DNA of 64,000 nt. It comes from Flavobacteriales bacterium. Lineage in GTDB: Bacteria; Bacteroidota; Bacteroidia; UBA4408. Positions within the stretch are counted from its first letter, which is position 1. Every line of letters starts with the position of its first letter. The notes beneath the pieces were generated by a model, which searched no databases, was not told where the DNA came from, and saw only the letters and a program-made list of their open reading frames with translations. Shown here in pieces: positions 2,307 to 63,700 of the stretch. The stretch is from positions 7,766 through 71,765 of the forward strand of contig JBEIDK010000002.1 of NCBI GenBank assembly GCA_040383485.1. Reading direction: 5' to 3'. The position numbers and the translations under genes are program-made.

Positions 2307-3335
2307 TTAATTCATATCATAAAATCTACTATTATCGCCTCTTCTATTTTTCTTAAATGGATTAAAATCAAATGTAATATATAATTCAAATGTATTATAA
2401 GTTGCTCCAGCAATTTTACTACCTCCCATTTCAACAGAATAATTAGCTCCAACTTCAATTTCTTCAATAAATATTGATAGTGATGCACCAAATTGAGCAA
2501 CAGAAAAACCATCGAAATTATTAAAGTGCTGATTTAGTCCAAATCCAATATTTCCTAAGATAGCTTCTTGATATAAGTCAATTCTAGATTTAGAACCTTG
2601 TTTGGAGAAAGTATTGTAGAAATACAAATAGGAATAATAAGGTAAAAAACCTTGATTATATTTATTGATATCAAATTGAATTCCAGTTTGTAAAGAAATA
2701 AATAAATCTTTAAAATTTGAAGCCTCACTATTAAATGATGTTTCGGGTCTATTAATATGTCTAACATTTGCTCCAAGTAAAATATCAGAATTATCAGCAA
2801 AAAAATCACTTGTATTATAAAAACTAACCCCAGCACCTACATCAAAATAATTTACATTATTGTTGATATTTATAGGATCATTTGAAATTCCTACTATTGA
2901 TCCCGTGAAAGCATTAATTTGGTCTTCAAAAACTAAAGAATTAAAATCTAGATTTGTACTTCCAAAGCCAACAGATACTGATGGATTAAAAATCCATTCT
3001 TCATTAAGTTGGGTTTTATAAATGTAATGTAGATTCGCAGAATTTGATGTATAACCTAACGAACTAATTTGCATTGAATTGACATCAACTGCTAGTGAAA
3101 AATCATGGTTGTCAAAATAATGATTGGCAAAAGCAAATCTATTATCCATTTTACTATTTTGATTAAAACCTTCTGAACTATAAATTATACCTGCTTTTGA
3201 AGAATCTCCAAACCCATAGAAACTAGGATTTGTTGATCCTGGTATCATATTTTGATTTTTATATATATAATCTTGACTAAATGCTATAGTCGAAAATAAT
3301 AGTATTAAAAGTAAAAAGCTGTTGTTCTTTTTCAT
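2307..3335 (-). CDS. PorP/SprF-family type IX secretion system outer-membrane protein (partner of the upstream type-B CTD adhesin)
   Basis: 342 aa with a signal peptide (MKKNNSFLLLILLFSTIAFSQ). The body is beta-barrel-like with alternating aromatic/polar residues and ends in an aromatic-rich strand. It lies 6 nt downstream of a type-B-CTD gene, the usual sprB-sprF arrangement. Sequence is divergent, so the call is partly positional. Confidence 0.65.
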   Translation of the reverse strand: MKKNNSFLLLILLFSTIAFSQDYIYKNQNMIPGSTNPSFYGFGDSSKAGIIYSSEGFNQNSKMDNRFAFANHYFDNHDFSLAVDVNSMQISSLGYTSNSANLHYIYKTQLNEEWIFNPSVSVGFGSTNLDFNSLVFEDQINAFTGSIVGISNDPININNNVNYFDVGAGVSFYNTSDFFADNSDILLGANVRHINRPETSFNSEASNFKDLFISLQTGIQFDINKYNQGFLPYYSYLYFYNTFSKQGSKSRIDLYQEAILGNIGFGLNQHFNNFDGFSVAQFGASLSIFIEEIEVGANYSVEMGGSKIAGATYNTFELYITFDFNPFKKNRRGDNSRFYDMN

Positions 3336-22673: not shown

Positions 22674-22712
22674 AATTAGGATTCTATGTTTTTTTGGGGT
22701 AAAAGTAATTAA

Positions 22713-22720
22713 CAAAATTA
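22713..22720 (-). promoter_or_regulatory. candidate -7 box TAATTTTG for the giant adhesin gene
   Basis: The plus strand reads caaaatta, which is TAATTTTG on the minus strand. It lies ~40 nt upstream of the ATG at 22673 and overlaps the alternative ATG at 22715. Confidence 0.4.
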
Positions 22721-40049: not shown

Positions 40050-40655
40050 ATGTATAAAAAATATATAAAAAGTATATTTGATTTTAGTATCGCTTTTGTA
40101 GTTTTCTTTTTTTTGTTACCTGTATTCGTGATTGTGCTTGTTGGTTTGTATGTAGCTAATCAAGGCAAACCTTTCTTTTTTCAAATACGTCCAGGTAAAA
40201 ATGAAAAAACATTCAAAATTATTAAGTTCAAAACGATGAATGATAATAAGAATAGTGATGGAATTTTACTTTCTGACGCGCAACGTTTAACAAAAATTGG
40301 TAACTTTGTAAGGAAAACATCAATAGACGAATTACCTCAATTAATAAATGTATTGAAAGGAGAAATGAGCTTAATAGGCCCAAGACCTTTATTGCCGGAA
40401 TATTTGACTTTATATAATGAAACTCAAAAGAGAAGGCATGAGGTTAAACCTGGAATTACAGGTTGGGCGCAAGTAAACGGTCGTAATGCAATTAGTTGGG
40501 AACAAAAATTTGAATTTGATGTTTGGTATGTAAATCATGTTTCTTTTTTACTCGATTGTAAAATTGTATATTTAACAATAAATAAAGTTTTTAAACGGGA
40601 AGGTATAACTTCAGAAAATTCAGTTTCAGCAGAAGCTTTTAAAGGAAGAAATTAA
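40050..40655 (+). CDS. PglC-type (small monotopic) phosphoglycosyl transferase / bacterial sugar transferase
   Basis: 201 aa. N-terminal KSIFDF plus a re-entrant helix, then PFFFQIRPGKNEKTFKIIKFKTM, the catalytic IDELPQL and GPRPLLPEY. Confidence 0.85.
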   Translation: MYKKYIKSIFDFSIAFVVFFFLLPVFVIVLVGLYVANQGKPFFFQIRPGKNEKTFKIIKFKTMNDNKNSDGILLSDAQRLTKIGNFVRKTSIDELPQLINVLKGEMSLIGPRPLLPEYLTLYNETQKRRHEVKPGITGWAQVNGRNAISWEQKFEFDVWYVNHVSFLLDCKIVYLTINKVFKREGITSENSVSAEAFKGRN

Positions 40656-40661
40656 TAATAT

Positions 40662-41306
40662 ATGCAAGATATAATTATTATTGGGGCTAGTGGTCTGGGT
40701 AAAGAGGTTGCTTATCATATTAAATCTATAAATAAGATAAACCCAAGCTTTAATGTAGTGGGTTTTATAGATGATAATTCTTCTATACTCAATAACGAAA
40801 TAATTTATGGGATAAAAGTTATTGGAAATCTTAATGATCTTATGAATAATAAATTTGATGTAAAAAATATTTGCATAGCTATAGCTGACAATAATATTCG
40901 CTTTTCAATTGTTGAAAAATTAAAGCATATTAACTTTATTTTTCCGAATATTATTGATCCTTCGGTTAATTTTGATTCTTCTAACAGCATAGGTTATGGT
41001 AATATTATTGGTCATGGTGTTTTGATGACTTGTAATATCTCTTTAGGTAATTTCAATATTTTAAACGGGTCATCAGGTTTTGGTCATGATATAACAATAA
41101 GTGATTTTAATTTATTTGGCCCTAGAACATCTATTTCAGGATGTGTGAAAATCGGAAGTTTGAATACTTTTAATTTAAACTCGTCAATTATTCAGAATTT
41201 AACAATAGGTAATGGGAATACTATAAATTTACATTCTTGTTTGTTCAAAAGTATAAAAGATGACGGAGTCTATTTTGGTGTTCCAGCGATGAAACAAAAA
41301 TTTTAA
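40662..41306 (+). CDS. PglD/NeuD-family sugar N-acyltransferase (Rossmann-like N-domain + hexapeptide beta-helix)
   Basis: 214 aa. Contains IIIIGASGLGKEVA...VVGFIDDN..., then hexapeptide turns ending in GVPA. Confidence 0.75.
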   Translation: MQDIIIIGASGLGKEVAYHIKSINKINPSFNVVGFIDDNSSILNNEIIYGIKVIGNLNDLMNNKFDVKNICIAIADNNIRFSIVEKLKHINFIFPNIIDPSVNFDSSNSIGYGNIIGHGVLMTCNISLGNFNILNGSSGFGHDITISDFNLFGPRTSISGCVKIGSLNTFNLNSSIIQNLTIGNGNTINLHSCLFKSIKDDGVYFGVPAMKQKF

Positions 41307-41326
41307 TAATAAATAAATAAATAATT

Positions 41327-41554
41327 ATGACAGCAGAGAATTTTATTAAAGATTTACAAGAAGAAGTGTTTATGGAAACAGAGATTTCTTTAATTACACT
41401 TGAAACAAATTTTAAAGATCTAGATGAGTGGGATTCATTAACAGCATTATCATTAATTGCTCATTTTGACATGAATTTAGGTAAAAAAATATCAGGTGAT
41501 CAAATAAAAAATGCTGTGTTTATTCAGGATTTATATAATTTAGCTATTGCATAA
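41327..41554 (+). CDS. acyl carrier protein (ACP-1)
   Basis: 75 aa, acidic, four-helix size. The phosphopantetheine site is the DSL motif (LDEWDSLTALSLI). Confidence 0.75.
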   Translation: MTAENFIKDLQEEVFMETEISLITLETNFKDLDEWDSLTALSLIAHFDMNLGKKISGDQIKNAVFIQDLYNLAIA

Positions 41555-42606
41555 TGTTTACAGTAAAAGGGGTAAAATTAAGTTCTATTGTTGGTGTTGC
41601 TCCGGCTTATACCGAAGATAATTTGACTAATCCAATCTTCAATGATTCTGAGGATGCTGAGAAATATGTAAAGACTGTTGGAGTTCGTTATAGAAGAGTA
41701 ACCGACGAAAATACTTGTACTGCAGATTTATTTGTACCCGCTTTCAACAAACAAATAGAGTTGTTGAACTGGGACAAAAGCGAGGTTGGGATTCTTATAG
41801 TTATAACCCAAACTCCAGAATATGTTTCGCCTTTACAAAGTATTATTTTACAGGATCGTTTAGGATTAGAAAAAACATGTTTATGTATTGATGTGCCTTT
41901 GGGATGTAGTGGCTATATTTACGGGAGTTTTTTGATATCTACTTTGATGCAGGCGCATAATATAAAAAAAGGAATTTTATTAACAGGTGATACCTTAACT
42001 AAACAAGCTTCAAAAAGAGACAGAAGTACACAGCCGTTATTTTCTGATGCAGCAACATCGACAGCTTTTGAATTGGATAAAACTGCATCAGATATGTTAT
42101 TTGACTTAGGTAATGATGGTTCCGGTTTTGAAAATATTATGGTAAAAGATGGAGGATATCGCAATCGTTTTTCTGAAGAATCATTGAAATACGTTGATAA
42201 AGGAGAAGGAGTATGTTTGCGGGGAATAGATACAATTATGATAGGTATGGATGTGTTTTCATTTGCAATATCAACAGCCCCGAAAACAGTTAATCATTTA
42301 ATTAGTCAATATAATTTAGATTTTGACAGTTTAGATTATTTTGTATTTCATCAGGCAAACATGTTTTTGAATGAGATGATTCGAAAGCGATTGAAACTAC
42401 CAGTAGATAAAGTTCCATATTCCTTATACGATTATGGAAATTCAGCTTCTGCTACTATTCCAATTACAATACTAGATAAAATTCAAAATGAAATTAAAGA
42501 AAAGCCATTAAAAATGATTTTTTCAGGTTTTGGAGTCGGTTTGTCCTGGGGAGCCATGTATATAGAAACCAACAATGTAGTTGTTACGCCAATAATTCTC
42601 GTATAA
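41554..42606 (+). CDS. KASIII (FabH-like) 3-oxoacyl-ACP synthase / acyltransferase, copy 1
   Basis: 350 aa with a Cys-His-Asn triad: PLGCSGYIYG, FVFHQANMF, YGNSASATIP. The start overlaps the ACP stop (TAATG). Confidence 0.85.
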   Translation: MFTVKGVKLSSIVGVAPAYTEDNLTNPIFNDSEDAEKYVKTVGVRYRRVTDENTCTADLFVPAFNKQIELLNWDKSEVGILIVITQTPEYVSPLQSIILQDRLGLEKTCLCIDVPLGCSGYIYGSFLISTLMQAHNIKKGILLTGDTLTKQASKRDRSTQPLFSDAATSTAFELDKTASDMLFDLGNDGSGFENIMVKDGGYRNRFSEESLKYVDKGEGVCLRGIDTIMIGMDVFSFAISTAPKTVNHLISQYNLDFDSLDYFVFHQANMFLNEMIRKRLKLPVDKVPYSLYDYGNSASATIPITILDKIQNEIKEKPLKMIFSGFGVGLSWGAMYIETNNVVVTPIILV

Positions 42607-42607
42607 T

Positions 42608-43705
42608 ATGATACAAAAACTAAAACCAATTCATTACACTAACAGAGAATATTTCGACAAAGAAATTTTAGATATTTTCGAAAATAATTGGCAATTTGCT
42701 TGTATGAAATCTGAACTTTCAGAAAGATTTAGCTATTTTGTTGTTGAATATGGTAATAAATCCTATTTCGTTACAAATGCTGGAAAAGATGGTATACGTG
42801 CATTTAAAAATGTATGTTCACACCGTGCAAATAAAATATTTTTGGATGATTTTGGTAAGAGACCAATAATGTGTTTATATCACAATTGGACTTATAACAG
42901 TGAAGGAAAGCCAATTAATGCTTTTGCAAAAGATTTTTTTGAAACACCAGAAGAATCAGATTTGTTATTAGAACAATATGAAGTTCAAATTGTAGGGGAG
43001 TTTGTTTTTGTAAATGTAGGAAATTCTAAAATAACAATTGAGGAACAATTAGGCGAATTTCATAATAAATTGATTGAAATATCAAATGCCTTAGGAGTAA
43101 AAATTACTTATGACTGTAATTTGCATAAAGCAAATTGGAAGTTATTAGTAGAGAATGTTTTGGAATGTTATCATTGTTTACCGGTTCATAAAAATTCCTT
43201 GGTAGAGCGTCTTGGAGTTGGGCTAAAGCCTTTTGTGAAGTTTGAATTTTTCAACGGAAATTCCTCTGGTCATTTACCTATTGAAAATAATCAAGTTTCA
43301 GTCAAAAGAAAAAAAATACTAAATTACCTTGATAAGAGAGAATTTAAACATGATTCATATTATCATTTATTTATTTATCCAAATTTATTCATTTCATCAA
43401 CAGAAGGAATTTCTTTTTACATTGGCCATGCATTGCCTAATAATTTCTGCGAGACAAATCTTCGAACCCGTTATTTTGAATGTAAAATAAAAAATATTGA
43501 GGAATATAGAAATTATCAGGATTTTTTAAATTCTGATATTGTTAATTTCGGAAATGAAATTCTAAATGAAGACAAAATAATCATTCAGAATGTTCAAAAA
43601 GGATTGGAAATAAGTAATAAAAGTTTATATCTAAACAAAGAAGAGTTTAGGATAAAAGAATTTCAAGAACATTATTGTTTACAAATAAATGCGTATGATT
43701 TTTAA
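42608..43705 (+). CDS. Rieske [2Fe-2S] non-haem-iron oxygenase, alpha-subunit type
   Basis: 365 aa. The Rieske motif is CSHRANKIF-x-CLYHNW (CxH-x16-CxxH). The mononuclear iron motif is NWKLLVENVLECYHCLPVH. Confidence 0.8.
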   Translation: MIQKLKPIHYTNREYFDKEILDIFENNWQFACMKSELSERFSYFVVEYGNKSYFVTNAGKDGIRAFKNVCSHRANKIFLDDFGKRPIMCLYHNWTYNSEGKPINAFAKDFFETPEESDLLLEQYEVQIVGEFVFVNVGNSKITIEEQLGEFHNKLIEISNALGVKITYDCNLHKANWKLLVENVLECYHCLPVHKNSLVERLGVGLKPFVKFEFFNGNSSGHLPIENNQVSVKRKKILNYLDKREFKHDSYYHLFIYPNLFISSTEGISFYIGHALPNNFCETNLRTRYFECKIKNIEEYRNYQDFLNSDIVNFGNEILNEDKIIIQNVQKGLEISNKSLYLNKEEFRIKEFQEHYCLQINAYDF

Positions 43706-44450
43706 TAACAAATTAGATGTTAATAATAAAAACATCTTAATTACAGGCGCGACATCGGGTATAGGTTTTGCAACATCACAACTGTTAATAAATTTAGGAT
43801 GTTCACTTTATGTAGTTGGAAGAAATAGAGTAAAACTTGATGAACTCGAAACTTTGGGAAAAGGAAAAGTGGTTTCTTTACAAGCTGATTTAAGAAATAT
43901 TAATGATATAAAAATGATTATAGATACAATTTCTAAAATTGATGGTTTTGTTCATTCTGCAGGTGTAGTAAATAGTATTCCTTTGCAATTTATTAATCAT
44001 GAATCTCTTGAAATTGAGCGTTCTTTAAATTATGATGCTTTTGTGTTTTTAACTCAAAATTTAGTTAAGAAGAAAAAAATTAATTCTGATGGATCAATAG
44101 TTTCTCTTGCTTCAATTGCTGCTCACTTTGGTATAATTGGTAGTTCAATTTATTGTGGTAACAAAGCAGCTTTAATAGCTACATCAAAAGTTTTCGCAAA
44201 AGAGTTAGCAAATAAAAGGATTAGAGTTAATACAGTTTCACCTGGAATTGTCCGGACGGAAATGGTCAACAATGCTGAGGGACAACATTTAACAAAGGAT
44301 GCTCTTATTTTGGATGAACAAAAATACCCTTTGGGATATGGTGAGCCAGATGATGTCGCTTATTGTATTACTTTTTTACTTTCAGATGCAAGTAAATGGA
44401 TTACAGGCCAAGATATTATTTTAGATGGTGGTAGAACTTGTTATGTTTAA
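43689..44450 (+). CDS. short-chain dehydrogenase/reductase (FabG-like ketoreductase), copy 1
   Basis: 253 aa. Contains ITGATSGIGFA (TGxxxGIG) and SIYCGNKAAL (YxxxK). It overlaps the upstream gene by 17 nt. Confidence 0.85.
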   Translation: MRMIFNNKLDVNNKNILITGATSGIGFATSQLLINLGCSLYVVGRNRVKLDELETLGKGKVVSLQADLRNINDIKMIIDTISKIDGFVHSAGVVNSIPLQFINHESLEIERSLNYDAFVFLTQNLVKKKKINSDGSIVSLASIAAHFGIIGSSIYCGNKAALIATSKVFAKELANKRIRVNTVSPGIVRTEMVNNAEGQHLTKDALILDEQKYPLGYGEPDDVAYCITFLLSDASKWITGQDIILDGGRTCYV

Positions 44451-44461
44451 AAGTAAATAGT

Positions 44462-45514
44462 ATGGAAAAAATATTTAAAAATATTTCAATTTCTGGTATT
44501 TCTACAGTTGTTCCTGAGACTGTTTTGAATTTGGAAACATTAAGTTCTGTTTATGGGAATGATGATGTTAGGAAAATTATATCTACTACAGGTATTAAAG
44601 AAGTCCGTATTGCAGACAATGAGACAACAGCTTCGGACTTATGTTTTCAAGCAGCACAACATTTGATTAAGCAATTGGACATAGATAAGAACGAAATAGA
44701 TGGATTAATATTTGTTTCTCAGACTAACGATTATAGTTTGCCGCAAACAAGTAATGTTTTACAAAGTCGATTAGGGCTTAATGAAAATGTTTTTTGCTTA
44801 GACATCAGATTAGGATGTAGCGGTTATGTTGTAGGTTTATTTCAGGCTTCGTTATTAATCAATTCTGGTGCATGTAAAAATGTTTTGGTTTTAGCAGGTG
44901 ATACTACATCAAAAATAATAAATCCAAAAGATAAGTCTTTAAGAATGGTTTTTGGTGACGCTGGTTCGGCTACTTTTGTTAAAAGTGGTTCTGATGATAT
45001 AGGCTTTAAAATCCATAATAAGGGGTCAGGATTTTCCGAATTAATTATTCCTGCAGGGGGGTTTAGAAAACCAATTTCAAGCCTAACTTCCAATGAAATC
45101 AGTGATAAAGACGGCAATATTAGATCAGAAAATGATTTGTACATGAATGGTGCCGAAATCTTTAATTTCGCAATTAATAATGTACCTACTTTAATTGATG
45201 ATTTAATAAAAATTGCAAAATGGTCTAAAACAGATGTTGATTTATTTTTATTCCATCAAGCTAATAACTTTATGGTTGAATATTTAAAACGTAAATTGAA
45301 AATAATTACTGAGAAAGTGCCTTTAGGTGTAGAAAATTATGGAAATACAGGACCGTGCTCAATACCGCTACTTTTAAGTCATATATCTGGGAAACAATTT
45401 TCTTCGGACAAAGTTATAATGTGTGGTTTTGGAGTAGGATTATCATGGGCTGGCTGTTATACAAATTTATCAAAAACAAAATTTTTTAAAACAATTGATT
45501 ATATAAAAGATTAA
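44462..45514 (+). CDS. KASIII (FabH-like) 3-oxoacyl-ACP synthase / acyltransferase, copy 2
   Basis: Track ORF is 44438..45514. The ATG at 44462 gives MEKIFKNISISGIS. Triad: RLGCSGYVVG, FLFHQANNF, YGNTGPCSIP. Confidence 0.85.
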   Translation: MEKIFKNISISGISTVVPETVLNLETLSSVYGNDDVRKIISTTGIKEVRIADNETTASDLCFQAAQHLIKQLDIDKNEIDGLIFVSQTNDYSLPQTSNVLQSRLGLNENVFCLDIRLGCSGYVVGLFQASLLINSGACKNVLVLAGDTTSKIINPKDKSLRMVFGDAGSATFVKSGSDDIGFKIHNKGSGFSELIIPAGGFRKPISSLTSNEISDKDGNIRSENDLYMNGAEIFNFAINNVPTLIDDLIKIAKWSKTDVDLFLFHQANNFMVEYLKRKLKIITEKVPLGVENYGNTGPCSIPLLLSHISGKQFSSDKVIMCGFGVGLSWAGCYTNLSKTKFFKTIDYIKD

Positions 45515-45516
45515 AA

Positions 45517-45744
45517 ATGAAAGAATTATTATTATTAAAAATAAATGAAGTTTTAGAGGGCAAAAGCATGCCAATTTTAACAGACATTAATTCAGATACA
45601 ATTTTGAGAGATGGGTTAGGGTTGGATTCTTTTGATTTAGCTGAATTAACTGTTAGAATAGAAGAAGAAACAGATATTGATATATTTTCAAACGGTATTG
45701 TAACAACTGTAGGTGAAATATTACATATATTGGAGAATAATTAA
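45517..45744 (+). CDS. acyl carrier protein (ACP-2)
   Basis: 75 aa, acidic, with a Ser motif (GLDSFDLAELTV). Confidence 0.7.
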   Translation: MKELLLLKINEVLEGKSMPILTDINSDTILRDGLGLDSFDLAELTVRIEEETDIDIFSNGIVTTVGEILHILENN

Positions 45745-45758
45745 ACAAAAAATCTCCT

Positions 45759-46991
45759 ATGTTTTATATTAACGAAAACAATTCAGAATATTTTAGCTAC
45801 AAGGAGCTTGTAATCTACTTAAACGAGTCAGGAAGTATTATTACAAACCCTTACAAAACTTCTACTTTAGATTTGTTTAAAAATTTGATTAAAGCTTTGA
45901 TTCATAACAAAGATTTAATTTTATTAGATAATGATTTTACAGATACTGAAATAATTTCGCTTATTGGAGAAAAATATATTGAAAATGTTGTCTCAGTAGA
46001 TAGTTTAGGATTTGATAGTTTTAAATCATATTTACAGTTAATAATTGAATCTAAAAGTAAAATTACTATTTATACTTCTGGTACAACAGGCCTTCCAAAA
46101 AAAGTGGTTCATACTATTAGATCATTGACAAGAGAAGTTAAGACTGGATTAATTTTTGAGTCATCAATTTGGGGTTTAGCTTTCAATCCTACTCACATGG
46201 CTGGTCTTCAGGTGTTTTTCCAAGCATTATTTAACAATAACACCTTAGTTGATTTATTTAATATTGATACAAAAACCGTTAAAGAATCAATAATAAAATA
46301 TAAAATTTCTCATATTTCAGCTACACCAACATTTTACAGATTACTAAATAGTAAAGATATTATTTTTAATGGTGTTAAGTCTGTTACTTTAGGAGGTGAG
46401 AAGTCGGAAGATAATTTGTACAGGATAGTTAAAAGAATGTTTCCTTTTGCAAAAGTTAAAAACATTTATGCATCAACTGAGGCAGGATCCTTATTGAGTT
46501 CTGATGGTGAATTTTTTTATATTCCAGAGCGTTTGAAGGATAAAATTGTTATTAAAGAAAATGTACTTTATATTAATGAGTCATTATTAGGTAAAATGTC
46601 GGATCTTTTGATAGAAAAAGGCTGGTATTGTAGTGGCGATGTTATCGAATTTAAAAGTGATTCCCTTGATTATTTCAAATTGATTGGTAAATCAAATGAA
46701 ATGATAAATGTTGGAGGATATAAAGTAAACCCGCATGAAGTAGAATTAGAACTTAGGTGTATCGATGGAATTGACAATGCTTTTGTATTTGGTAAGGCTA
46801 ATTCTGTATTAGGAAATCTTATATGTGCTGAGATTGTTTTAGAAAAGGGCATTGAAATAGAAGAGACAAAAATCAAAGATATTTTAAGGGAAAAATTGCA
46901 ACAATTCAAAATTCCACGTAAAATATTTTTTGTTGATAAATTAAATTTAAATAGAACAGGAAAAATAAGTAGATCAAATGTTACAAAATAA
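45759..46991 (+). CDS. AMP-dependent ligase (adenylate-forming acyl-ACP/CoA ligase), short form
   Basis: 410 aa. Contains the AMP-binding core IYTSGTTGLPKKVVHT, YASTEAG, and GDV...GYKVNPHEVE...PR..TGKI. Confidence 0.8.
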   Translation: MFYINENNSEYFSYKELVIYLNESGSIITNPYKTSTLDLFKNLIKALIHNKDLILLDNDFTDTEIISLIGEKYIENVVSVDSLGFDSFKSYLQLIIESKSKITIYTSGTTGLPKKVVHTIRSLTREVKTGLIFESSIWGLAFNPTHMAGLQVFFQALFNNNTLVDLFNIDTKTVKESIIKYKISHISATPTFYRLLNSKDIIFNGVKSVTLGGEKSEDNLYRIVKRMFPFAKVKNIYASTEAGSLLSSDGEFFYIPERLKDKIVIKENVLYINESLLGKMSDLLIEKGWYCSGDVIEFKSDSLDYFKLIGKSNEMINVGGYKVNPHEVELELRCIDGIDNAFVFGKANSVLGNLICAEIVLEKGIEIEETKIKDILREKLQQFKIPRKIFFVDKLNLNRTGKISRSNVTK

Positions 46992-47712
46992 AAATATTTT
47001 AATTACTGGGTGTTCCAGAGGACTTGGTTTGGAAATTGTTAAAGAACTTTTACTTCAAGGTGCAAATGTATATGGTGTTAGTAGAACTCTTTCTCCGGAG
47101 TTTAATTTGTTAACTGAACAATATAGTGGAAAAGTTTTTTTTAATAAGTTTGACTTAATAGCTACAAATGAGGTTGAAGTAAAAATTTTTAAAGAATGGC
47201 TAAACAATAAAATTGTCATTCATGGTTTTGTTAATAATGCAGCTGTAGCATATGATGACATTATTACAAATATGAATGTAGTTTCACTTGAATCAATGTT
47301 TAAAATTAATGTATTTAGTCCTTTAATTGCTGTAAAAGCGGTTTTGCGTAATATGATATTTAATCGAACTAAAGGTGGTATTGTTCATGTTTCATCTATT
47401 AGCGTTCATACTGGTTATAAAGGTTTGTCGATGTATGCCGGCTCTAAAGGTGCTTTAGAAGCTTTTTCGAAAAACACAGCAAGAGAATGGGGTGAAAAGC
47501 AAATAAGAAGTAATTGTCTTGTTGCCGGATTTATGGAGACTGAAATGAGCGGTACACTTTCGAATGAACAAAGAGATCGAATATTTAAAAGAACTTCGTT
47601 AAAAGTTCCAACAACATTAAATTCGGTTGCCAAGACAGTATGTTTTTTATTGTCAGATGCTGCGGAATCAATAACGGGTCAAAATATTCATGTTGATTCA
47701 GGTACAATTTAA
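46978..47712 (+). CDS. short-chain dehydrogenase/reductase (ketoreductase-like), copy 2
   Basis: 244 aa. Contains ITGCSRGLGLEI and SMYAGSKGAL (YxxxK). It overlaps the ligase by 14 nt. Confidence 0.85.
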   Translation: MLQNKNILITGCSRGLGLEIVKELLLQGANVYGVSRTLSPEFNLLTEQYSGKVFFNKFDLIATNEVEVKIFKEWLNNKIVIHGFVNNAAVAYDDIITNMNVVSLESMFKINVFSPLIAVKAVLRNMIFNRTKGGIVHVSSISVHTGYKGLSMYAGSKGALEAFSKNTAREWGEKQIRSNCLVAGFMETEMSGTLSNEQRDRIFKRTSLKVPTTLNSVAKTVCFLLSDAAESITGQNIHVDSGTI

Positions 47713-47725
47713 ATAATTTCATGTG

Positions 47726-48862
47726 ATGTTTAATAAAATATGGCTCTCCTCACCGCACATGGGAGGCACAGAGCAAAACTACGTACACGAAGCGTTTGAA
47801 GCCAACTGGGTGGCACCACTAGGTCCTAATGTAAATGGTTTAGAACAAGATTTAGAACACTATTTGGGGAATAATGCTCACGTAGGCGCTCTGAGTTCAG
47901 GAACAGCCGCCATTCATTTAGGATTGATTTTATTAGGCGTACAAGCGGGAGATGAGGTTATTTGTCAAAGCATGACTTTTTCAGCTTCTGCCAACCCCAT
48001 TTTATATTTAGGAGCAACCCCTGTTTTTATAGATAGTGAAGCACAAACTTGGAACATTTGCCCAGATGCTTTAGAGCAAGCCATTCAAGATCGTATATCA
48101 AAAGGTAAAAAACCAAAAGCCATAATTGCGGTGCATTTATATGGGGTACCTTATCAAATAGAAGCCGTTAGAGCTATTGCAGATAAATATCAAATACCCA
48201 TTTTAGAAGATAGTGCTGAGGCTTTAGGGAGTTCTTACAAAGGACAAAAATGCGGTACTTTTGGAGATATTGGGGTGCTTTCCTTCAATGGTAACAAAAT
48301 TATTACTACATCTGGTGGAGGAGCAATTGTCACTAAAACAGCTACTCAAAAAGAGAAAGCCGTTTTCTATGCTACACAATCACGAGATAATGCACCACAT
48401 TATCAACACAGCCATATTGGTTACAATTACCGCATGAGTAATATTTGTGCTGGTATTGGTAGAGGTCAAATGGAAGTCTTAGACGAACATGTTGCTTTGA
48501 GAAGACAAATGCACGATTTTTATGTAGATATATTTGCTTCCATCGAAGGAGTCGAAGTTTTTTCTGTTCCTGACGATAATTATTTTGCTAATTATTGGTT
48601 GAGTGCCATTACTATAGATACCACAAAAACCAATGGTATAACTGCTGATACTTTACGCTTAGCCCTTGACGCTGAAAACATTGAATCACGCCCTCTGTGG
48701 AAACCGATGCATTTGCAACCTATTTTCTCCAACTATCCGTATTACGGAAGCAACGTAGCCGAAACTCTATTTGAAAACGGCCTGTGTTTGCCTTCCGGGT
48801 CTAATTTATCAGATAAGGATAGATATAGAATAGAAAAACTAATTGAGCAGGTGTTTGGGTAG
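47726..48862 (+). CDS. DegT/DnrJ/EryC1/StrS-family PLP aminotransferase (PglE/EpsN-like UDP-4-keto-6-deoxy-HexNAc 4-aminotransferase)
   Basis: The track start at 47723 is GTG, and the ATG at 47726 is preferred. Contains LSSPHMGGTEQNYVHEAFEANWVAPLGPNV and the PLP lysine region (SFNGNKIITT). Confidence 0.9.
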   Translation: MFNKIWLSSPHMGGTEQNYVHEAFEANWVAPLGPNVNGLEQDLEHYLGNNAHVGALSSGTAAIHLGLILLGVQAGDEVICQSMTFSASANPILYLGATPVFIDSEAQTWNICPDALEQAIQDRISKGKKPKAIIAVHLYGVPYQIEAVRAIADKYQIPILEDSAEALGSSYKGQKCGTFGDIGVLSFNGNKIITTSGGGAIVTKTATQKEKAVFYATQSRDNAPHYQHSHIGYNYRMSNICAGIGRGQMEVLDEHVALRRQMHDFYVDIFASIEGVEVFSVPDDNYFANYWLSAITIDTTKTNGITADTLRLALDAENIESRPLWKPMHLQPIFSNYPYYGSNVAETLFENGLCLPSGSNLSDKDRYRIEKLIEQVFG

Positions 48863-52295: not shown

Positions 52296-52325
52296 CACGA
52301 ATTACGCGAATTAAACAAATTGAAA
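52283..52325 (+). repeat. ~4 units of a degenerate 9-10-nt repeat (ATTNNNCGA-type) spanning the rmlB stop
   Basis: Units: atattcga attaacacga attacgcga attaaacaa attgaaa. The TAA stop is at 52293-95. Confidence 0.65.
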
Positions 52326-52721
52326 ATGAATGACCCCTACAAAATAATTTATAAAGACGAAAGCTATGCTATTGTTGGTGCTTGTATGAAAGTGCATTGT
52401 GCCTTGGGACCGGGATTTTTGGAAGCAGTGTATGAAGAGGTTTTAGAAAAAGAGTTTCAAGTCCAAAAAATTCCTTACCAACGACAAGTGAAATTAGATT
52501 TGTATTATGAAGGTGAAAAATTGAAAAAGCAATACAGGGCAGATTTTATTTGTTATGATAAAATTATTGTTGAATTAAAAGCAGTTCATCAGATGCCTTC
52601 GGTGTTTTATGCGCAACTGCAGAATTATTTAAAATGCTCAAATATGGAGTTGGGAATGTTGATTAATTTTGGCACACCATCCTTAACTTATAAAAGAATA
52701 GTAAACTCAAAAAATAGATAA
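52326..52721 (+). CDS. GxxExxY-family protein (PD-(D/E)XK-fold small protein)
   Basis: The ATG at 52326 is preferred over the TTG at 52320. Contains the signature [13 protein letters not shown], then ...[18 protein letters not shown]...QLQNYLK...GMLINFG. Confidence 0.8.
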
Positions 52722-55013: not shown

Positions 55014-56903
55014 ATGCAAAAATTATTAAAAAAATACATCAATTTAAAAAAACTAAGTTTTCTTCCCAGTTGGGCTATTTTATTTATAGATATTTTCATA
55101 ACTACTTCTGTATCCTTATTTACCTATATTACATTTAAGTTAATTGGTGTTGTTTTTTATGATACCTATCCTGCAAGCATTAGGTTTTCATTATTTTTAG
55201 GAGTAGTATTTTTTTATTTTCTTTTGTTTAAAACCTATACAGGAATTATTCGTTATTCAAGCCTAAAAGACGCTACACGGCTATCCAAAGCAATTGCTTC
55301 GGCTTTCATCACAGTAGTAGCTATAGATACTTTACACTATATCCTACAAGACAAGCACATATTCGTTTTAATGACGGTGTTTTTCTATTCACTAATTATA
55401 TTATTTGCGTTAATTTCTTTTCGAATTTTCATCAAAACGTTATTTAAATATTTTGCAGGAAGTGAAGAAAAACCCAAAGCAGAAAACCTAGTGATTATTG
55501 GGGTAAATAGTACCACTATAGCGTTAGCCGAGGCATTTGTAAATGACAATTCACAATATAAATTACAATTTTTTATTGATAAAAATAAATTCCTAAACGA
55601 TAAAAAGGTATTGGGGATTCCAGTAATTGCAAAAACCAATTCGATCATAGCTATTTTGCGTTATAACAAAATAAAGCACGTAGTATTGATTAAAAATTTC
55701 TTGCCTGAGAGAGAAGAATTAGATTTGTTAGAAGATTGTTTACGATACAAAATCAATGTTTATAATCCTAAATTAGTCAGTGGATTTGATACAGGGGTTA
55801 ATACTGTAAAGTCATTAAAAAAATATACCATCGAAGAATTAATGTTTCGAGAAACCATTAGTATCGATAATCCAAATGTAATTAATGCATTTACAGCAAA
55901 AACAATTCTAGTAACTGGTGGCGCAGGTTCTATTGGAAGTGAAATTGTAAATCAATTAGCCCAGTTTAATCCTGAACAAATTGTAATTGTAGATCAAGCC
56001 GAAACACCTTTGAATTCCATTCAATTGAATATGTCGGCAGCATTTCCAGAAATTCCTTGTCATTATGAATTAGTGGATGTCACTAATGCAGCTGAAGTAG
56101 CGCAATTATTCCAAAAATTTAAACCACAAATTGTCTTCCATGCGGCGGCTTACAAGCACGTGCCAGTATTAGAAACTAATTTCATGCAGGCGGTTAAAGT
56201 AAATATATTTGGTACGAAGAATGTATTAGATACGGCAATAGCATCTGGAACGCAACGTTTTGTTTTTGTTTCAACAGACAAAGCAGTCAATCCTACCAAT
56301 ATCATGGGCGCTTCTAAACGAATTGCAGAAATCATGGTACAAGCCCGATTTAATACCCAAAGAGGATCACAAAAAATGCAAGTAATTACCACTCGTTTTG
56401 GTAATGTGTTAGGTTCTAATGGTTCGGTAGTTAATTTATTTGAAAAACAAATAAAAGAGGGAGGTCCCATAACGGTTACTCATCCAGAAATTAACCGTTT
56501 CTTTATGACCATTCCTGAAGCTTGTAAATTAGTATTAGAAGCTGGAACCATGGGTGCAGGTGGAGAGATTTATATTTTTGATATGGGTAAACCTATTTTC
56601 ATTAAAGATTTAGCCGAGAAAATGATTCGCTTAAGCGGAAAAGAACCGTATACAGATATTGACATCGTTTACACGGGTTTACGGCCTGGAGAAAAATTAT
56701 ATGAAGAGGTATTGGCAGATTCATCTAAAACCTTGCCTACCTATCATCCAAAAATACTTATAGCGCAAGACCCCGTGTATTGTTATGAAAAAGTGCAAGA
56801 GTTTTTAATGAAGTTAAACAACAATACTTTTGAGAACAAAGCCGCTTTAATTGAAGCATTTACCGAATTAGTGCCCGAATTTATTCAAAACCCACAAGAA
56901 TAG
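55014..56903 (+). CDS. membrane-anchored polysaccharide biosynthesis protein CapD/WbpM/PglF family (UDP-GlcNAc 4,6-dehydratase type)
   Basis: 629 aa. Four N-terminal TM helices, then an SDR domain with VTGGAGSIGSE, AAAYKHVP, STDKAVNPTNIMGASKR and RFGNVLGSNGSV. Confidence 0.85.
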   Translation: MQKLLKKYINLKKLSFLPSWAILFIDIFITTSVSLFTYITFKLIGVVFYDTYPASIRFSLFLGVVFFYFLLFKTYTGIIRYSSLKDATRLSKAIASAFITVVAIDTLHYILQDKHIFVLMTVFFYSLIILFALISFRIFIKTLFKYFAGSEEKPKAENLVIIGVNSTTIALAEAFVNDNSQYKLQFFIDKNKFLNDKKVLGIPVIAKTNSIIAILRYNKIKHVVLIKNFLPEREELDLLEDCLRYKINVYNPKLVSGFDTGVNTVKSLKKYTIEELMFRETISIDNPNVINAFTAKTILVTGGAGSIGSEIVNQLAQFNPEQIVIVDQAETPLNSIQLNMSAAFPEIPCHYELVDVTNAAEVAQLFQKFKPQIVFHAAAYKHVPVLETNFMQAVKVNIFGTKNVLDTAIASGTQRFVFVSTDKAVNPTNIMGASKRIAEIMVQARFNTQRGSQKMQVITTRFGNVLGSNGSVVNLFEKQIKEGGPITVTHPEINRFFMTIPEACKLVLEAGTMGAGGEIYIFDMGKPIFIKDLAEKMIRLSGKEPYTDIDIVYTGLRPGEKLYEEVLADSSKTLPTYHPKILIAQDPVYCYEKVQEFLMKLNNNTFENKAALIEAFTELVPEFIQNPQE

Positions 56904-57735: not shown

Positions 57736-60700
57736 ATGACAAAATTAATTACACAAAAAGCCAATACAAAATTGGCAGTTAGCTTAAAAAACTATCTTTT
57801 AAGTTGTAAAAACCAAACCAACTACCTTACTTGTTTGCTCATTTTACTTTTTTCAGGTATGGGATGGGGGCAGAGTACTGCAAATTACAACTTCACAGTT
57901 GGAACAAGCACACTTAACAATATGACAGGTAGTACTAGTATTATGAATGGCATTCAAGATGATCTTGGCAGCACAGTATTCCCTATTGGTTTTAACTTCA
58001 TCTATATGGGAACAAGTTATTCTCACATAAGTGTAAACAGTAACGGACAAGCTAGACTTCATACATCAAGTGGCGCGACTGCAATAAGTGGTTCAGCTAT
58101 TTCATCATATTCTTCAGCTACAGTTACAATTGCACCAATGGCTGGTGATAATCAAGTAGGAAATGGAATGTCTTATTTGGTTACAGGTTCAGCACCAAAC
58201 AGAAAATTGATTATTGAATGGAATAAATTTTATGTAAGTCTTACAGATGTAAATTCTGGTAATATGCAATTGGTGCTTTATGAGGGGACTGGAGTGTTTG
58301 AGTTTATTTATGGTAATATTGTGAATTCAGCTTCTAGTACTAGGTCGAGATCTATTTTTCACAGTTCAGGAAGTACATCAAATACATCAGCTTTTATTAC
58401 GGTTGGTACAACTCCAACAATAAATACTACAGCTACTTCACCAATTGATAATAATTTTGCAGCAAGTGTAGCAATTGCAAATTTAGCTAATAGAATGTTT
58501 ACTTTTACTCCACCTATACCGGTATCTGGGCCTACTAATCTTACTTTTACTAATGTATCTGCTTCATCTATGACACTGAACTGGACAGCTGCTACGCCTA
58601 CTACAGGAATTGTACGATATGTGGTGCAACGTTCTGCTGATGGGGGAATTACTTATCCTGTAAGTACAAATGTAGCATTAGGCACCAATACACTTGTTGT
58701 AACTGGTTTATCTCCAAGCACAAGCTACACGTATAGAGTAGTAGCTGTGAGCGAAGGAGTAGAGAGTGCTCCTGCATCGGCCTCTCAATCAACAAATGCT
58801 CCTACAACTTATACTTGGATAGCCACTTCTGGTACTGCTTCTTGGGTAACACCTACAAGTTGGTCACCTGATAGAACAACTCCAGACGCTACAGATATTT
58901 TAAATTTTAGTAATGGTGGTAGTTCTATTGTTACAAGTATTCCTACTCAAACAGTTGGTAATATTGTATTTTCTAATAATACAACAGCAAATTTTCAGGC
59001 AGCTTCGACAGCCACCTTAACTTCGGGTGGGCTTACAATTCCTTCTGGGAGTACATTAATGTCTAATGGAACTACTGCGGCACTTACAATAGCTTTTTCT
59101 TCAGGTGCAGTTAATACAATTGGAGGAAGATTGGAAATATCAAATACAGGTACACCTGCCAATGGAATAACTTTTGCAAATAGTGTTACCACAATAACTT
59201 CTGCAGGAACTCTTGCTGCAGGTGGTTCTGTTGCCGCAACTGTAACTGGTACTACTTCTACTCTTGTAATTAATGGAACTTATGAGCACAACTATACAAC
59301 GGTTTCCGGTACAATCCCTACAGCTACTTGGGCAGCTACATCTAATCTCAACATTAATTCGTTTACTAGTAATACTTCGCTTCCAACAGGATTAATTGGT
59401 CAAACTTTTGGTAACCTAACATGGAATTGCACAGCACAAACCGGAAATATTTCTTTGGGTGGTAATAGCATAACTTGCGCAGGAACTTTCACCATGACAT
59501 CCACTAACACTGGCTCTCTAAGATTAGGTGCTTCATTAAATGGAGTTATAGCCACAAATAATTTCATTCAGACGGGAGGAACAATCGATTGTAGTTCATC
59601 AACAGGTTCGTCTATAATTAGGGTTTCTGGTACTTTTAATCAATCAGGAGGAACTATTACTGAAACAGGTACTGGCTCGGGAAATATCGAGTTTAATGGT
59701 GTCTTGGCCCAGTCCGTAACTCTTGGTGGCACAATCTCAAATACAATTAACTATAGAATCAATAATAATGCTGGAATTACTTTATCTGGAACAATGGCAA
59801 TTACAACTGGTGCCGGTCTGAGGATTTCATCTACGGCGGCTACTCCAATCAGTGGGGGTACCTTAACATACACTGGCAACACAACTTTAACTTATGACGC
59901 ATCTTCAGGGGCGCAAACGGTTACTGCCAATGAGTTTCCGTGGTCTAATGGTCCTAATAATCTAACTATCAACAATACTTCCACTTCTCCCAACAATGTT
60001 GTTACTATACCTTTTGATAGGACAGTAAATGGTACGCTTACGATGACAAGTGGAGATATTAATATTTCGTCAAATAATCTTACGTTAGGGACATCAACTT
60101 CTGCATTAGGCACTTTGTCTTATACAGCTGGGGCAATTCGTGTAACTTCAGGAACCTTAACAAGATGGTTTGGTACCTCAGGTTTGCCTACTTCAGCGCC
60201 AACTTCAGGGATAGGTTTTTATCCTTTAGCATCTAATTTAAATAATCGTAATGTCGGAGTTTTCTTTAGTACAGCTACAGTATTAAGTTCAGGCGGTACT
60301 ATAACAATTGGCCACACTGATGTTGCGGGACTTTCAACGCTTACTTCTTTTACGGATGCGGGTTACAACGTAGATACAAGAACTAATGCATCATGGACAG
60401 TAACTACTGGAAATGGAATAGCCACATCGGGTACTTTGGGTATGCGTTTGACAGGTGCAGGAGCATGTGCTACACCAACTGTGGCTAATCTTCGATTAAT
60501 GCAAGCAAATGTCGCGGCTGGGGTTCATGCTGCTGGTACAGGAACTACTCCAAATTTTCAAGCAAATAGAACAGGATTATCACTTACTGATATAGCTAAT
60601 ACACATTATATAGGTGCGGGTAATGCAGACATTCAAACGGTATTTAGTTCAGTTGCTTCAGGTGACTGGAATAATCCAGCTACTTGGGATGTTGGTTCAG

Positions 60701-63700
60701 TACCAACTTGTACGGGTAATGTGACAATTATGAATGGACACAATGTAAGCGTTAACTCTGCTTCTAACGTTTCCCGAAATCTTACAGTAAATCCAGGAGG
60801 TACACTATCGGTTGCTTCAGGTGATTTAACTGTAGGATGTACACTAAATAATACACCACTTACAAATAATGGTACTTTAACAGTAAGTGGTGGTACGTTG
60901 AATGTAAATGGGAATATAGTTTCTAATCTAGGTTCAACTTTTAACCAAAGTGGAGGTAATATTAATATTGATGGAAATGCTGCAGGAAATGCTACTAATT
61001 CAGTTGCTTCTGGAACTGCTTTACTTCAATTTAATCAATTGAATTCAGGAATTAATCTTACCGGTGGTACATTAACCGTAGTAGACCCTCACGCAAATGC
61101 TACATCAACGCTTGCTATTGGATATAGTAATTCAACTGCTGGAGGCCAGACTTCTACAATTAATCATACCTTACGTTTAGGTGATGGTATTTCAACTGAT
61201 GCTGGAGGTAATGTAGCAGGATTTAGAGTAGATCCATGGACCGGGACTGCATATTTATCTTTTGGAAATATTATAATAAATGGTGGTTCAGGAATTAATA
61301 GATCTGTAACTATCGCACAATCATTAGCAGCTATAGGTGACGTGACAGTTACAACGGGTTCAACATTAAATTTAAACTCAACACCTTCATTGATTGTAGC
61401 TGGAAATGTAACTGTTAATTCTGGTGGTACATTTATAAATACCGCTAGTATTATTACAGGTATTGTAGCTTCAAATACGAGTAGTCTACTTACATTTGGT
61501 CCATCTACTCTCGCTCAAACTATTGGTGGAAGTGGCACATATCAAAACCTTGCTACTTCACCAACAGCTAATTTAAATTCGTTATCAATTAATAATTCTA
61601 ACGCAACAGGTGTTACAATTTCAATACCATTAAGTATTAGCGGAACATTAACCATGACCGCTGGTAAAATTAATACAACAGCTACCAATCTTTTAACATT
61701 AGGAACATCAACAGCTGCTGGTACATTATCTTATACAGCAGGTCAAATTGCGGGTCCTTTTGCACGAACTTTTGCTACAAGTAGTACTTCCACCGCCTCA
61801 TATGACGCCACAACATTGTTTCCAGTAGGAGATGGTACAAATTATTTACCCATTCATATTGATCCAGTTAATGGTGCGGGTCCAGTTGTGATGCGAGGTC
61901 AAGCGTTTAATTCAAATAGTGGTTCTGCAGGAATTGGCATGGCTTCACCATTATCTAATGATCGTTGGGAAGCATTAGTAACTACTTCTGGCTCTTCTAA
62001 TTTAACAAGTTGTTTTATAGGTTTAAATGATGCCCAAATTGCAACGGGTAATGTTATTGCTCAATCTGCTTCAGCAGCTGGTTTTTATAATGCAATTGCG
62101 CCAGTATCCACAGTAGCTGCAGGGGCTTCTATTAGAACTGCAACGGCTATTCCAGCAGCATCTTACACAGGTTTTTTCACATACGGTTCTCCTTCTGTAG
62201 CTAACACCTGGACAGGAACAACTAGTAGTTCTTGGAATACGGCTAGTAACTGGTCGTTAAATACCGTACCAACTGCTACCGATGATGTATTAATTTCTTC
62301 TAACGGAACGACACCTCCCGTATTAGATGTAGACATAACTATTCCAGCTGGAAAAAGTTTAACCTTATCAGGTACGGGAAGTTTAACTGTTGCACCTGGT
62401 AAAGTGTTAACCATTGCAGGAACTGCTAATTTTGGCGCAAGACCAGTAATCTTTAAATCAGATGCTACAGGTACGGCTATGTTAGGCTCATTAACAGGAA
62501 CACTAACTGGTGCTTCAAATGTCACCGTAGAGCGTTTCATCCCATCTGGCAAACGCGCATTCAGGTTATTAAGCCCAGCGGTTACAACTACCAACTTTAT
62601 TTCAGGCAACTGGCAAGGACAAACCCATATTACGGGTGGTTTAGGTACAACTGGTTTAGGCTTTGACGCTACTGAAACCAATAATCCTTCGATGTTTACG
62701 TATAACAACCAAGCGGCACAGGGGGTAAGCGGTTGGATAGCTATTGCCAACACCAATGCAACAAATTTAACGGCAGGGGTAGGATATAGAATGTTGGTTA
62801 GAGGAGATAGAACCGCTTCAAATATTACAGCTGCTTCAGCTGATAGTATGAATACAGCTGTAACACTAAGTGCTACTGGAACCCTAAGAACAGGAGCAGT
62901 AACTTTAAATTCAAGCAGTACTCCATCAATTAATAATACATCAAACACCACTACAGCAGATTACAGCTTAATAGGTAACCCATACCAAAGTGCAGTAGAT
63001 TGGAATGCGGTAACAAAATCAGGTATCGACGCTACGTACTGGGCTTGGGATCCTAATATGGGTACAACAGCACAAAGAGGACGTTATGTGTCCTTTAACG
63101 GTACAGTTAACAGCGTAGATGGAGGTGTTGGTTCATCAAATGTGGGCCAATTCATACAGCCAGGTCAAGCCTTTTTCGTAAAGAATACAGTTTCAGGCAC
63201 TGCTGGTGCATTAACCTTCCAAGAAGCACACAAAGCTACTACGAATGCCAATGTATTTAGAACAGCAAACCCTACTACCTTAACAGTATCTTTGTATGAT
63301 CCTAATGAATTGGCAATTGGCGGGTATCCTATTGATGCTATGAAAGCGGTTTTTAGTGCAGATTACACAAATGAATTAGGACTTGGTGATGCTGCAAAAT
63401 TAGAAGCGGCAGGTGAAAACATCGCTTGGTTTAGAAACAATATCAAACTAGCCATTGAAGCAGCAGCACCAGCAACTTCATCAGATGAATTAGTAATGAA
63501 AACAATTCGTTTAGGAGCTAATAAAAATTATACGTTCAAAATTAATACCACTAATTTTGATGCTGATTTAACACCGTATTTAGTTGATAATTTCTTAAAT
63601 ACACAAACGCAAATCAGTACTTCAGAAGGTTATTTAGCAAACTTTAGCACCACAAGCAATGTTGCTTCTTACGGTGAAGATCGTTTTAAAATTGTATTCC

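Follow-up and report, generated by a model that had tools for sequence, protein, structure and literature searches.

A Rieske oxygenase gene recurs in a bacterial acyl carrier protein module, and its product may oxidise a short N-acyl chain

In this study, we analysed a stretch of 64,000 nucleotides (nt) from a Flavobacteriales bacterium (contig JBEIDK010000002.1, positions 7,766 to 71,765; hereafter the window), in which a gene for a Rieske non-haem-iron oxygenase lies within a one-strand polysaccharide locus. The gene stands between a ketoacyl synthase III gene (KASIII-1) and a short-chain dehydrogenase/reductase gene (SDR-1). The new observations are that the linkage of this Rieske family to an acyl carrier protein (ACP) module is family-wide, that the sugar genes beside the module vary, that modules of the same order occur without the Rieske gene, and that redox partner genes are found in a few modules. 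The features of the Rieske gene are as follows (aa, amino acids; A1, an alignment of 17 Rieske-family homologues with 36-85% identity; AF2, the structure model).

42608..43705, + strand: Rieske non-haem-iron oxygenase alpha subunit, 365 aa (Pfam, AF2 model, Foldseek, dN/dS)
42815..42883, + strand: Rieske [2Fe-2S] ligands C70, H72, C89 and H92 (CSH-x16-CLYH), invariant in A1
43151..43189, + strand: mononuclear-iron motif E182-NVL-E186-C187-Y-H189-C190-LPV-H194 (CntA alignment; invariance)
43571..43573, + strand: D322, predicted third iron ligand (NEDK, long C-terminal helix), invariant in A1 and analogous to CntA D323

The Rieske gene is a full-length open reading frame (ORF). Pfam assigned residues 27-105 of its product to the Rieske domain (PF00355, 47 bits against a cutoff of 20.3) and residues 172-356 to Ring_hydroxyl_A (PF00848, 59.5 bits against 24.9). 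The motif C70-S-H72-x16-C89-L-Y-H92 was the sole Rieske motif in all six frames of the window. Furthermore, the iron motif reads E182-N-V-L-E186-C-Y-H189-C-L-P-V-H194, and by analogy with CntA the third iron ligand is predicted to be D322, which sits in helix 297-335 of the AF2 model. The cluster and iron ligands, including E186, H189, H194 and D322, were all invariant in A1. The AF2 model, built from the family alignment, reached a pLDDT of 87.2 and a pTM of 0.89, and the length and termini of the protein agree with those of homologues of 364-367 aa. In addition, dN/dS against three homologues was 0.10-0.16, and thus the Rieske gene is under purifying selection.

The gene is tightly packed on both sides, with a gap of 1 nt upstream and an overlap of 11 or 17 nt downstream. 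The stop codon TAA of KASIII-1 ends at 42606 and is followed by one base (42607) and by the ATG of the Rieske gene at 42608. At the other end, SDR-1 opens with an ATG at 43689 and shares 17 nt with the Rieske gene, which stops at 43705. SDR-1 has another in-frame ATG at 43695, which would shorten the overlap to 11 nt, as in the homologue of F. galactosidilyticum, and may be its true start. The ORF, Pfam, motif and sequence checks thus confirmed the intact motifs and the junctions with KASIII-1 and SDR-1 (17-nt overlap) that the original prediction for this gene had reported.

Members of this Rieske family occur in two phyla, namely in Flavobacterium, Chryseobacterium, Pedobacter, Chitinophagaceae, Sphingomonadales, Methylobacterium and Acetobacteraceae, and those linked to the module span 34-98% identity. 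For instance, the loci of single homologues from F. galactosidilyticum (85% identity), a Bacteroidota contig (52%) and Pedobacter (44%) carry PglD-like, ACP, KASIII, Rieske, SDR and KASIII genes in this order. Rieske genes of about 40% identity from Methylorubrum extorquens, Allosphingosinicella and a Bacteroidota metagenome-assembled genome (MAG) lie beside two KASIII genes and ACP, SDR and hexapeptide/PglD transferase genes. In species-representative genomes, all 50 of 50 loci, plus L001-L011, had two KASIII genes, an SDR gene and a PglD or hexapeptide transferase gene beside the Rieske gene. About 25 Flavobacterium species, F. johnsoniae, F. hydatis and F. defluvii among them, are represented in these loci, and the remaining loci belong to Chryseobacterium, Weeksellaceae, Chitinophagaceae, Sphingomonas, Sphingobium, Sphingopyxis, Allosphingosinicella, Methylobacterium and Acetobacteraceae.

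A metagenome scan seeded with KASIII-1 contributed 80 further loci, and the pooled set holds 81 distinct Rieske-positive loci, in which neighbours were counted within 6 kb. A KASIII gene was present in 78 of the 81 loci, an SDR gene in 75 and an acyltransferase gene in 70; where a module gene was missing, the locus ran into a contig end or the gene lay just past the 6-kb limit. The sugar genes behaved differently. The window-type aminotransferase was found in only 22 of the 81 loci and another DegT subfamily in 34, and a PglC-like gene was present in only 26 (absent from 55). The acyl side of the module is constant across the loci, whereas the sugar side is variable.

The whole-library search for the Rieske protein gave 107 clusters (at 50% identity) with E = 1e-30 or better. 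In the phylogenetic tree, six groups were found: the clade of the window, Pedobacter, the MAG of locus L010, one alphaproteobacterial clade, Chryseobacterium together with F. xinjiangense, and the F. johnsoniae group. The last group covers about 22 Flavobacterium species (L029-L047 and others, e.g. L036 5380-12503) and carries a paralogous Rieske module at one conserved site beside Sua5, with divergent DegT and family 2 glycosyltransferase (GT2) genes in place of PglC and PglF. This Sua5-site module looks like a conserved, non-serotype modification of a glycan or lipopolysaccharide. Separately, we noted that L012, a contig of 4296 bp binned as an Algoriphagus MAG, holds a module 80-89% identical to the Flavobacterium-type module of the window, which could be mis-binning or recent transfer.

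The Rieske gene is an optional part of the module, and its presence follows the KASIII-1 subfamily. It was found in 22 of 23 loci whose KAS1 is at least 46% identical to that of the window, in 5 of 11 at 43-45%, in 2 of 11 at 40-42% and in none of 7 below 40%, a tally that counts short loci if they are Rieske-bearing and is slightly biased to presence in the upper identity bins. Meanwhile, modules of the same order without the Rieske gene (ACP, KAS1, SDR1, KAS2, PglD) were found in L066, L075, L084 and L106. A tblastn search of these loci found no remnant of a Rieske gene, and gene decay was rejected on this ground as the source of the Rieske-less modules. The Rieske gene behaves as a plug-in of the acyl module.

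Two further Rieske types were seen in related modules. In L076-L078, L080, L108 and L125, the Rieske gene follows the SDR gene, and its product is about 31% identical to that of the window, with the motif ENTLESYHV and no Cys-x-x-Cys pair. In addition, some modules of Sphingomonas, Sphingomonadales and Acetobacteraceae carry a second divergent Rieske (23-27% identity, motif ENALDQYHV, also matching VanA_C), which adjoins the PglD-like gene in L014 (6757-7875, - strand), L017 (3923-5023, - strand) and L018 (9845-10915, - strand). This paralogue suggests two oxidation steps in the modules carrying both.

In the window, the other genes of the module and of its sugar side are the following.

40050..40655, + strand: PglC-type initiating phosphoglycosyl transferase (Pfam Bac_transf, E = 1.4e-62)
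40662..41306, + strand: PglD/NeuD-type N-acyltransferase, predicted to act from acyl-ACP to an amino sugar (Pfam PglD_N; analogue of F. psychrophilum wfpG)
41327..41554, + strand: ACP-1, 75 aa, predicted acyl carrier (synteny with the ACPs of homologous modules)
41554..42606, + strand: KASIII-1, 350 aa, Cys-His-Asn triad intact (its subfamily co-occurs with the Rieske gene)
43689..44450, + strand: SDR-1, FabG-like ketoreductase (syntenic in related loci)
44438..45514, + strand: KASIII-2, 358 aa, Cys-His-Asn triad intact (catalytic residues checked)
45517..47712, + strand: ACP-2, a 410-aa AMP-ligase and SDR-2, an accessory sub-cassette (only in the window's own clade)
47723..48862, + strand: DegT/LegC-type sugar 4-aminotransferase (domain and family models)
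55014..56903, + strand: PglF-type UDP-GlcNAc 4,6-dehydratase, Polysacc_synt_2 (Pfam)

The order of the cassette is PglC, PglD/NeuD, ACP-1, KASIII-1, Rieske, SDR-1, KASIII-2, ACP-2, AMP-ligase, SDR-2 and DegT/LegC, so that two KASIII genes, an ACP, a FabG-like SDR and a PglD-like transferase are all adjacent in 40662-45514. Two of the assignments score below model cutoffs: the PglD-type protein is just below that of NCBIfam NeuD_NnaD (148.9 bits against 160.8), and ACP-1 has the NCBIfam acyl carrier protein model as its best match (25.5 bits against 65). The ACP-2/AMP-ligase/SDR-2 sub-cassette was found only in L001, L062, L063 and L081; no other Rieske-positive module has it, and its function may be to load a specific starter acid. 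On the 5' side of the cassette are genes for a UDP-sugar dehydrogenase, Wzz, a cytidylyltransferase-like protein, a hexapeptide transferase, a small membrane protein, an EpsG/Wzy-like polymerase and a GT2, and on the 3' side are rmlC, rmlD, rmlB, rmlA and the PglF-type dehydratase. The GC content is 23-32% over 37-47 kb of the window and 34-38% in the flanking locus genes, and the low-GC stretch fits a laterally exchanged, serotype-specific block.

Other ORFs of the window are listed here for completeness. An ORF of the PDDEXK_3 (PD-(D/E)XK nuclease) family lies at 52320-52721 (+ strand) between the rmlB-like and rmlA-like genes. A single ORF of 6457 aa at 3342-22715 (- strand) has Ig_7, Big_2, PKD-like and He_PIG repeats and a C-terminal CHU_C signal for the type IX secretion system (T9SS), and looks like a giant T9SS-secreted, adhesin-like protein; it is followed by an ORF of 342 aa at 2307-3335 (- strand) with no Pfam match. 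Directly 3' of the polysaccharide locus, an ORF of 2077 aa at 57736-63969 (+ strand) carries fn3 and a Por_Secre_tail T9SS sorting domain.

The original prediction had left open whether the enzyme is CntA/GbcA-like or like CMP-Neu5Ac hydroxylase (CMAH), and both sequence and fold put it with CntA and Stc2. Its top sequence match in the PDB was CntA (6y8j, E = 6e-23, aligning over residues 7-195 only), and the next matches were 3n0q and the stachydrine demethylase Stc2. With the AF2 model, Foldseek ranked CntA and Stc2 best (TM 0.76-0.80), also with 3n0q, followed by terephthalate dioxygenase (TPADO) and classical ring-hydroxylating enzymes; the TM scores were 0.74-0.82 over CntA, Stc2 and TPADO. 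All top matches by sequence and by fold are bacterial Rieske oxygenases. In the active site, E186-C187-Y-H189-C190 aligns onto CntA E205-C206-Y-H208-C209, and H194 aligns with CntA H213. For group V, the group of CntA, a bridging Glu has been described and, in some members, an unusual Cys-x-x-Cys pair near the mononuclear iron (PMC7948474, PMC10952381).

The position that recognises the amine is different. In CntA, Tyr203 makes a pi-cation contact with the quaternary ammonium, and this position is aromatic (Tyr or Phe) in clade Va and Asn in clade Vb (PMC7948474, PMC10952381). In the Rieske protein of the window it is V184, and the Val is invariant in A1; the E-N-V-L-E motif around it was present in most of the 86 main-family Rieske ORFs. 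Thus, the enzyme does not appear to be a betaine or carnitine oxygenase. The best NCBIfam model, GbcA (NF058607), gave 114.8 bits against a cutoff of 670 and covered residues 9-196 only. Membership in the CntA/GbcA/Stc2 family itself was ruled out by V184, the low GbcA score and the non-amine gene context. Judged from sequence, the protein is group V-like in architecture without the quaternary-amine recognition feature, and it represents a recurrent module component from an uncharacterised but widespread branch of the group V-like oxygenases.

For the electron supply, Pfam found no Fer2, Fer4, FAD_binding_6, NAD_binding_1 or Ring_hydroxyl_B domain in the window (ORFs of at least 90 aa not nested in genes, and several shorter ones). 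A scan for Cys motifs in all stop-to-stop frames of at least 40 aa gave one ferredoxin-like match at 59176-59340 (- strand), which is an antisense frame inside the 2077-aa ORF and was taken as chance. Both scans agree with the earlier statement that the window holds no reductase or ferredoxin partner. Partners were seen in a few other modules. A Pedobacter module carries, on the opposite strand, an adrenodoxin-type ferredoxin of 107 aa (C-x5-C-x2-C...C spacing); this ferredoxin and a metallo-beta-lactamase-fold protein of 217 aa, possibly a thioesterase, lie between KASIII-2 and the aminotransferase gene (L004, 12864-13940). In Chryseobacterium edaphi, C. piscicola and a Weeksellaceae MAG, a reductase of 357-364 aa with FAD_binding_6, NAD_binding_1 and a C-terminal Fer2 is encoded between the SDR and aminotransferase genes. 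Besides these, no redox partner was found in any module among about 125 loci, and the lack of a linked partner is the norm for this Rieske family, not a peculiarity of the window. In addition, homologues of the reductase (about 40% identity; named ferredoxin-NADP reductase (FNR) or PaaE) are widespread in Flavobacteriaceae, including one Flavobacterium, and thus an unlinked donor is plausible.

Taken together, the enzyme most likely adds an extra oxygen to a short fatty-acyl decoration of a surface amino sugar. From sequence comparison and gene order, we lean towards the view that the gene product is an active Rieske monooxygenase of the alpha-only type, which serves a short-chain acyl-ACP module as a dedicated but optional tailoring enzyme. 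With less confidence, and tentatively, we propose that the protein may be a third branch of group V-like oxygenases acting on the ACP-held short acyl chain, where it would add an extra hydroxyl, possibly at the distal end of the chain, and give a polyhydroxy-acyl N-substituent (e.g. trihydroxyhexanoyl or dihydroxybutanoyl). The oxidative tailoring of an acyl chain had been suggested before; the linkage to KASIII, ACP, SDR and acyltransferase genes (78/81) and the Rieske-less modules have strengthened this idea, although they do not prove it.

In the pathway we propose, KASIII-1, SDR-1 and KASIII-2 would assemble a C4-C6 acyl chain, either beta-keto or beta-hydroxy, on ACP-1. NAD(P)H would provide two electrons, which would reach the Rieske enzyme via an unlinked donor, either a PaaE-like FNR-Fer2 reductase or an adrenodoxin-type ferredoxin, and would pass from the [2Fe-2S] cluster (C70, H72, C89, H92) through the bridging E186 to the Fe(II) of the neighbouring subunit (H189, H194, D322). 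O2 would be activated at this Fe(II), and one oxygen would enter an unactivated C-H bond of the chain while it is tethered to the ACP. The PglD-type transferase would then put the oxidised acyl group on UDP-4-amino-4,6-dideoxy-HexNAc, and PglC would begin the repeat unit with the acylated sugar. In this scheme, acyl-ACP as the substrate, hydroxylation as the reaction, the site of oxidation and the nature of the donor in the source genome are all inferred. As to the position, the closest characterised relatives, such as CntA, act as hydroxylases on sp3 C-H bonds in small aliphatic compounds with hydroxy or carboxy groups (carnitine, gamma-butyrobetaine), and CntA attacks C4 of a 3-hydroxy-C4 acid (PMC7948474, PMC10952381). 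By analogy, our guess would be oxidation at the distal end of the chain.

The scheme has a reference in the O-antigen of F. psychrophilum, which carries (3S,5S)-3,5-dihydroxyhexanoyl on Qui2NAc4N (PMC6519341). Its synthesis was assigned by the authors to wfpC (FabH-like), wfpD (ACP), wfpE (FabH-like), wfpF (FabG-like) and wfpG (PglD-like), a set that holds no oxygenase (PMC6519341). According to a review of glycan side chains, N-acyl groups of the fatty-acid and dicarboxylic types include 3-hydroxybutanoyl, 3,5-dihydroxyhexanoyl, glyceroyl, malonyl and maloyl (PMC10609480).

Several points speak against the proposed scheme. Synteny cannot separate action on acyl-ACP from action after transfer, and the electron donor of the enzyme was not located within the 64-kb window. 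To our knowledge, there is no well-established Rieske oxygenase that acts on a carrier-protein-bound substrate. The link of the wfp genes to 3,5-dihydroxyhexanoyl is also a prediction. A further-oxidised C4-C6 N-acyl group is absent from the list of the review (PMC10609480), and thus the predicted product has no known counterpart there; our literature search for oxidised C4-C6 N-acyl substituents returned only 2,4-dihydroxypentanoic acid ethers, 3-hydroxybutanoyl, 3,5-dihydroxyhexanoyl, glyceroyl and similar groups. In the same way, the literature search yielded no account of a Rieske enzyme connected with O-antigen, bacillosamine or acyl-ACP, and no paper on any member of the window family. 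The earlier remark that such enzymes are unusual in O-antigen or capsule loci therefore holds for the literature searched, but not for sequence space, where the Rieske gene recurs in the module.

The order of events could also be different, with the same family and role. The acyl chain would then be oxidised after the PglD-type transfer, on the UDP-amino sugar or on a lipid-linked sugar. There is a precedent, since CMAH oxidises the N-acyl group on a nucleotide sugar. In Chryseobacterium and F. xinjiangense, the gene order is PglC, KAS2, PglD, Rieske, ACP, KAS1 and SDR, with the Rieske gene straight after PglD, and it adjoins the PglD-like gene in many alphaproteobacterial loci too. However, the PglD-like proteins range from 19 to 97% identity and come with at least two DegT subfamilies, whereas identity remains within 34-50% for the Rieske, KAS and SDR proteins. 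If the enzyme recognised the nucleotide sugar, its gene would be expected to vary together with the sugar genes, but its presence follows KASIII-1 instead. The constant KAS, ACP and SDR genes, the variable sugar genes and this covariation favour the ACP-bound stage, and we regard later oxidation as unlikely.

Even on the same acyl chain, the outcome might not be a hydroxyl group. Rieske oxygenases catalyse desaturation, cyclisation and cleavage as well, and desaturation, oxidative C-C cleavage or ring formation would be conceivable here. For instance, CntA breaks a C-N bond through hydroxylation (group V), and the second divergent Rieske in some alphaproteobacterial modules suggests multi-step oxidation. 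Nevertheless, no gene of the module hints at a partner for cyclisation or cleavage, and the default outcome on an aliphatic C-H is hydroxylation, which makes these reactions improbable.

Another candidate target is the sugar itself, with hydroxylation of the C6 methyl or the 2-N-acetyl of 4-amino-4,6-dideoxy-HexNAc. Such a role would agree with the position in a polysaccharide locus and with the analogy to CMAH. We consider it quite improbable, however, given that the Rieske gene is always beside KASIII, SDR and ACP genes and often occurs without PglF-, PglC- or window-type aminotransferase genes (55 of the 81 loci without a PglC-like gene), and that L007 and L010 lie outside obvious polysaccharide clusters.

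A catabolic oxygenase for quaternary amines (betaine, carnitine, choline), present in the locus by chance, is effectively refuted and has very little probability. CntA, Stc2 and GbcA are indeed the closest structures and the best NCBIfam model, and they too have the bridging Glu and the Cys pair, but the GbcA score is 115 bits against 670, the amine-binding position is an invariant Val, and a betaine or carnitine operon was the context of the Rieske gene in 0 of the 81 loci. The possibility, raised with the original prediction, that close homologues would prove to be quaternary-amine demethylases in unrelated contexts was thus not borne out across these loci. Finally, a decaying or inactive gene without a cognate reductase, to which the lack of a partner gene within the 64-kb window might point, is hardly credible in view of the full-length ORF, the intact ligands, the dN/dS of 0.10-0.16 and the absence of a linked partner from most homologous modules too.

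If oxidation of the acyl chain is correct, it would define a new substrate class for Rieske oxygenases, namely short aliphatic acyl chains bound to a carrier protein or a glycan, and a functionally new branch beside the CntA/GbcA group known from medical research. Surface polysaccharides would then be predicted to bear an N-acyl decoration not described so far. The module occurs commonly among Bacteroidota and Alphaproteobacteria of soil, freshwater and plant-associated habitats, and the chemistry would then be common to the surface glycans of many species of Flavobacterium, Chryseobacterium, Pedobacter, Sphingomonas and Methylobacterium. In addition, the module could be of use for sequence-based serotype prediction, which is already practised for F. 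psychrophilum.

Among known systems, the ring-hydroxylating alpha subunits (NDO, BphA and TPADO) share the two-domain fold and the ligand set with the window enzyme. However, the latter has no beta subunit and no aromatic-catabolism neighbours, and it is shorter (365 against roughly 450 aa). With CMAH, the likeness is one of function only: both have a Rieske [2Fe-2S] domain, and CMAH acts oxidatively on an N-acyl group carried by an activated sugar. Its catalytic part is of another kind, and cytochrome b5 supplies its electrons. The parallel to CMAH drawn earlier therefore stands for the Rieske domain but not for the catalytic domain, which in the window enzyme is Ring_hydroxyl_A (SRPBCC-type), CntA/Stc2-like by sequence and fold and probably not CMAH-like.

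CntA, Stc2 and GbcA are the best matches in sequence and fold, are likewise alpha-only with no beta-subunit gene, and share E-C-Y-H-C. In contrast, overall identity is about 20%, and the sequence alignment ends at residue 195. With an invariant Val in place of CntA Tyr203, the window family belongs to neither clade Va nor clade Vb. Furthermore, CntA, Stc2 and GbcA serve amine catabolism, whereas the context of the window family is an acyl-ACP and amino-sugar module, and this family presumably acts on an uncharged acyl thioester or amide. The reductase of the Chryseobacterium modules has an FNR-like part followed by a C-terminal plant-type Fer2, which we take to be the order of CntB/YeaX as well.

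The closest counterpart of the cassette is wfpB-wfpG of F. psychrophilum. Both have PglC, two FabH-like KASIII proteins, an ACP, a FabG-like reductase and a PglD-like N-acyltransferase, with bacillosamine-type sugar genes adjoining. The window differs in adding the Rieske gene and the ACP-2/AMP-ligase/SDR-2 sub-cassette, and its acyl product is expected to differ from 3,5-dihydroxyhexanoyl.

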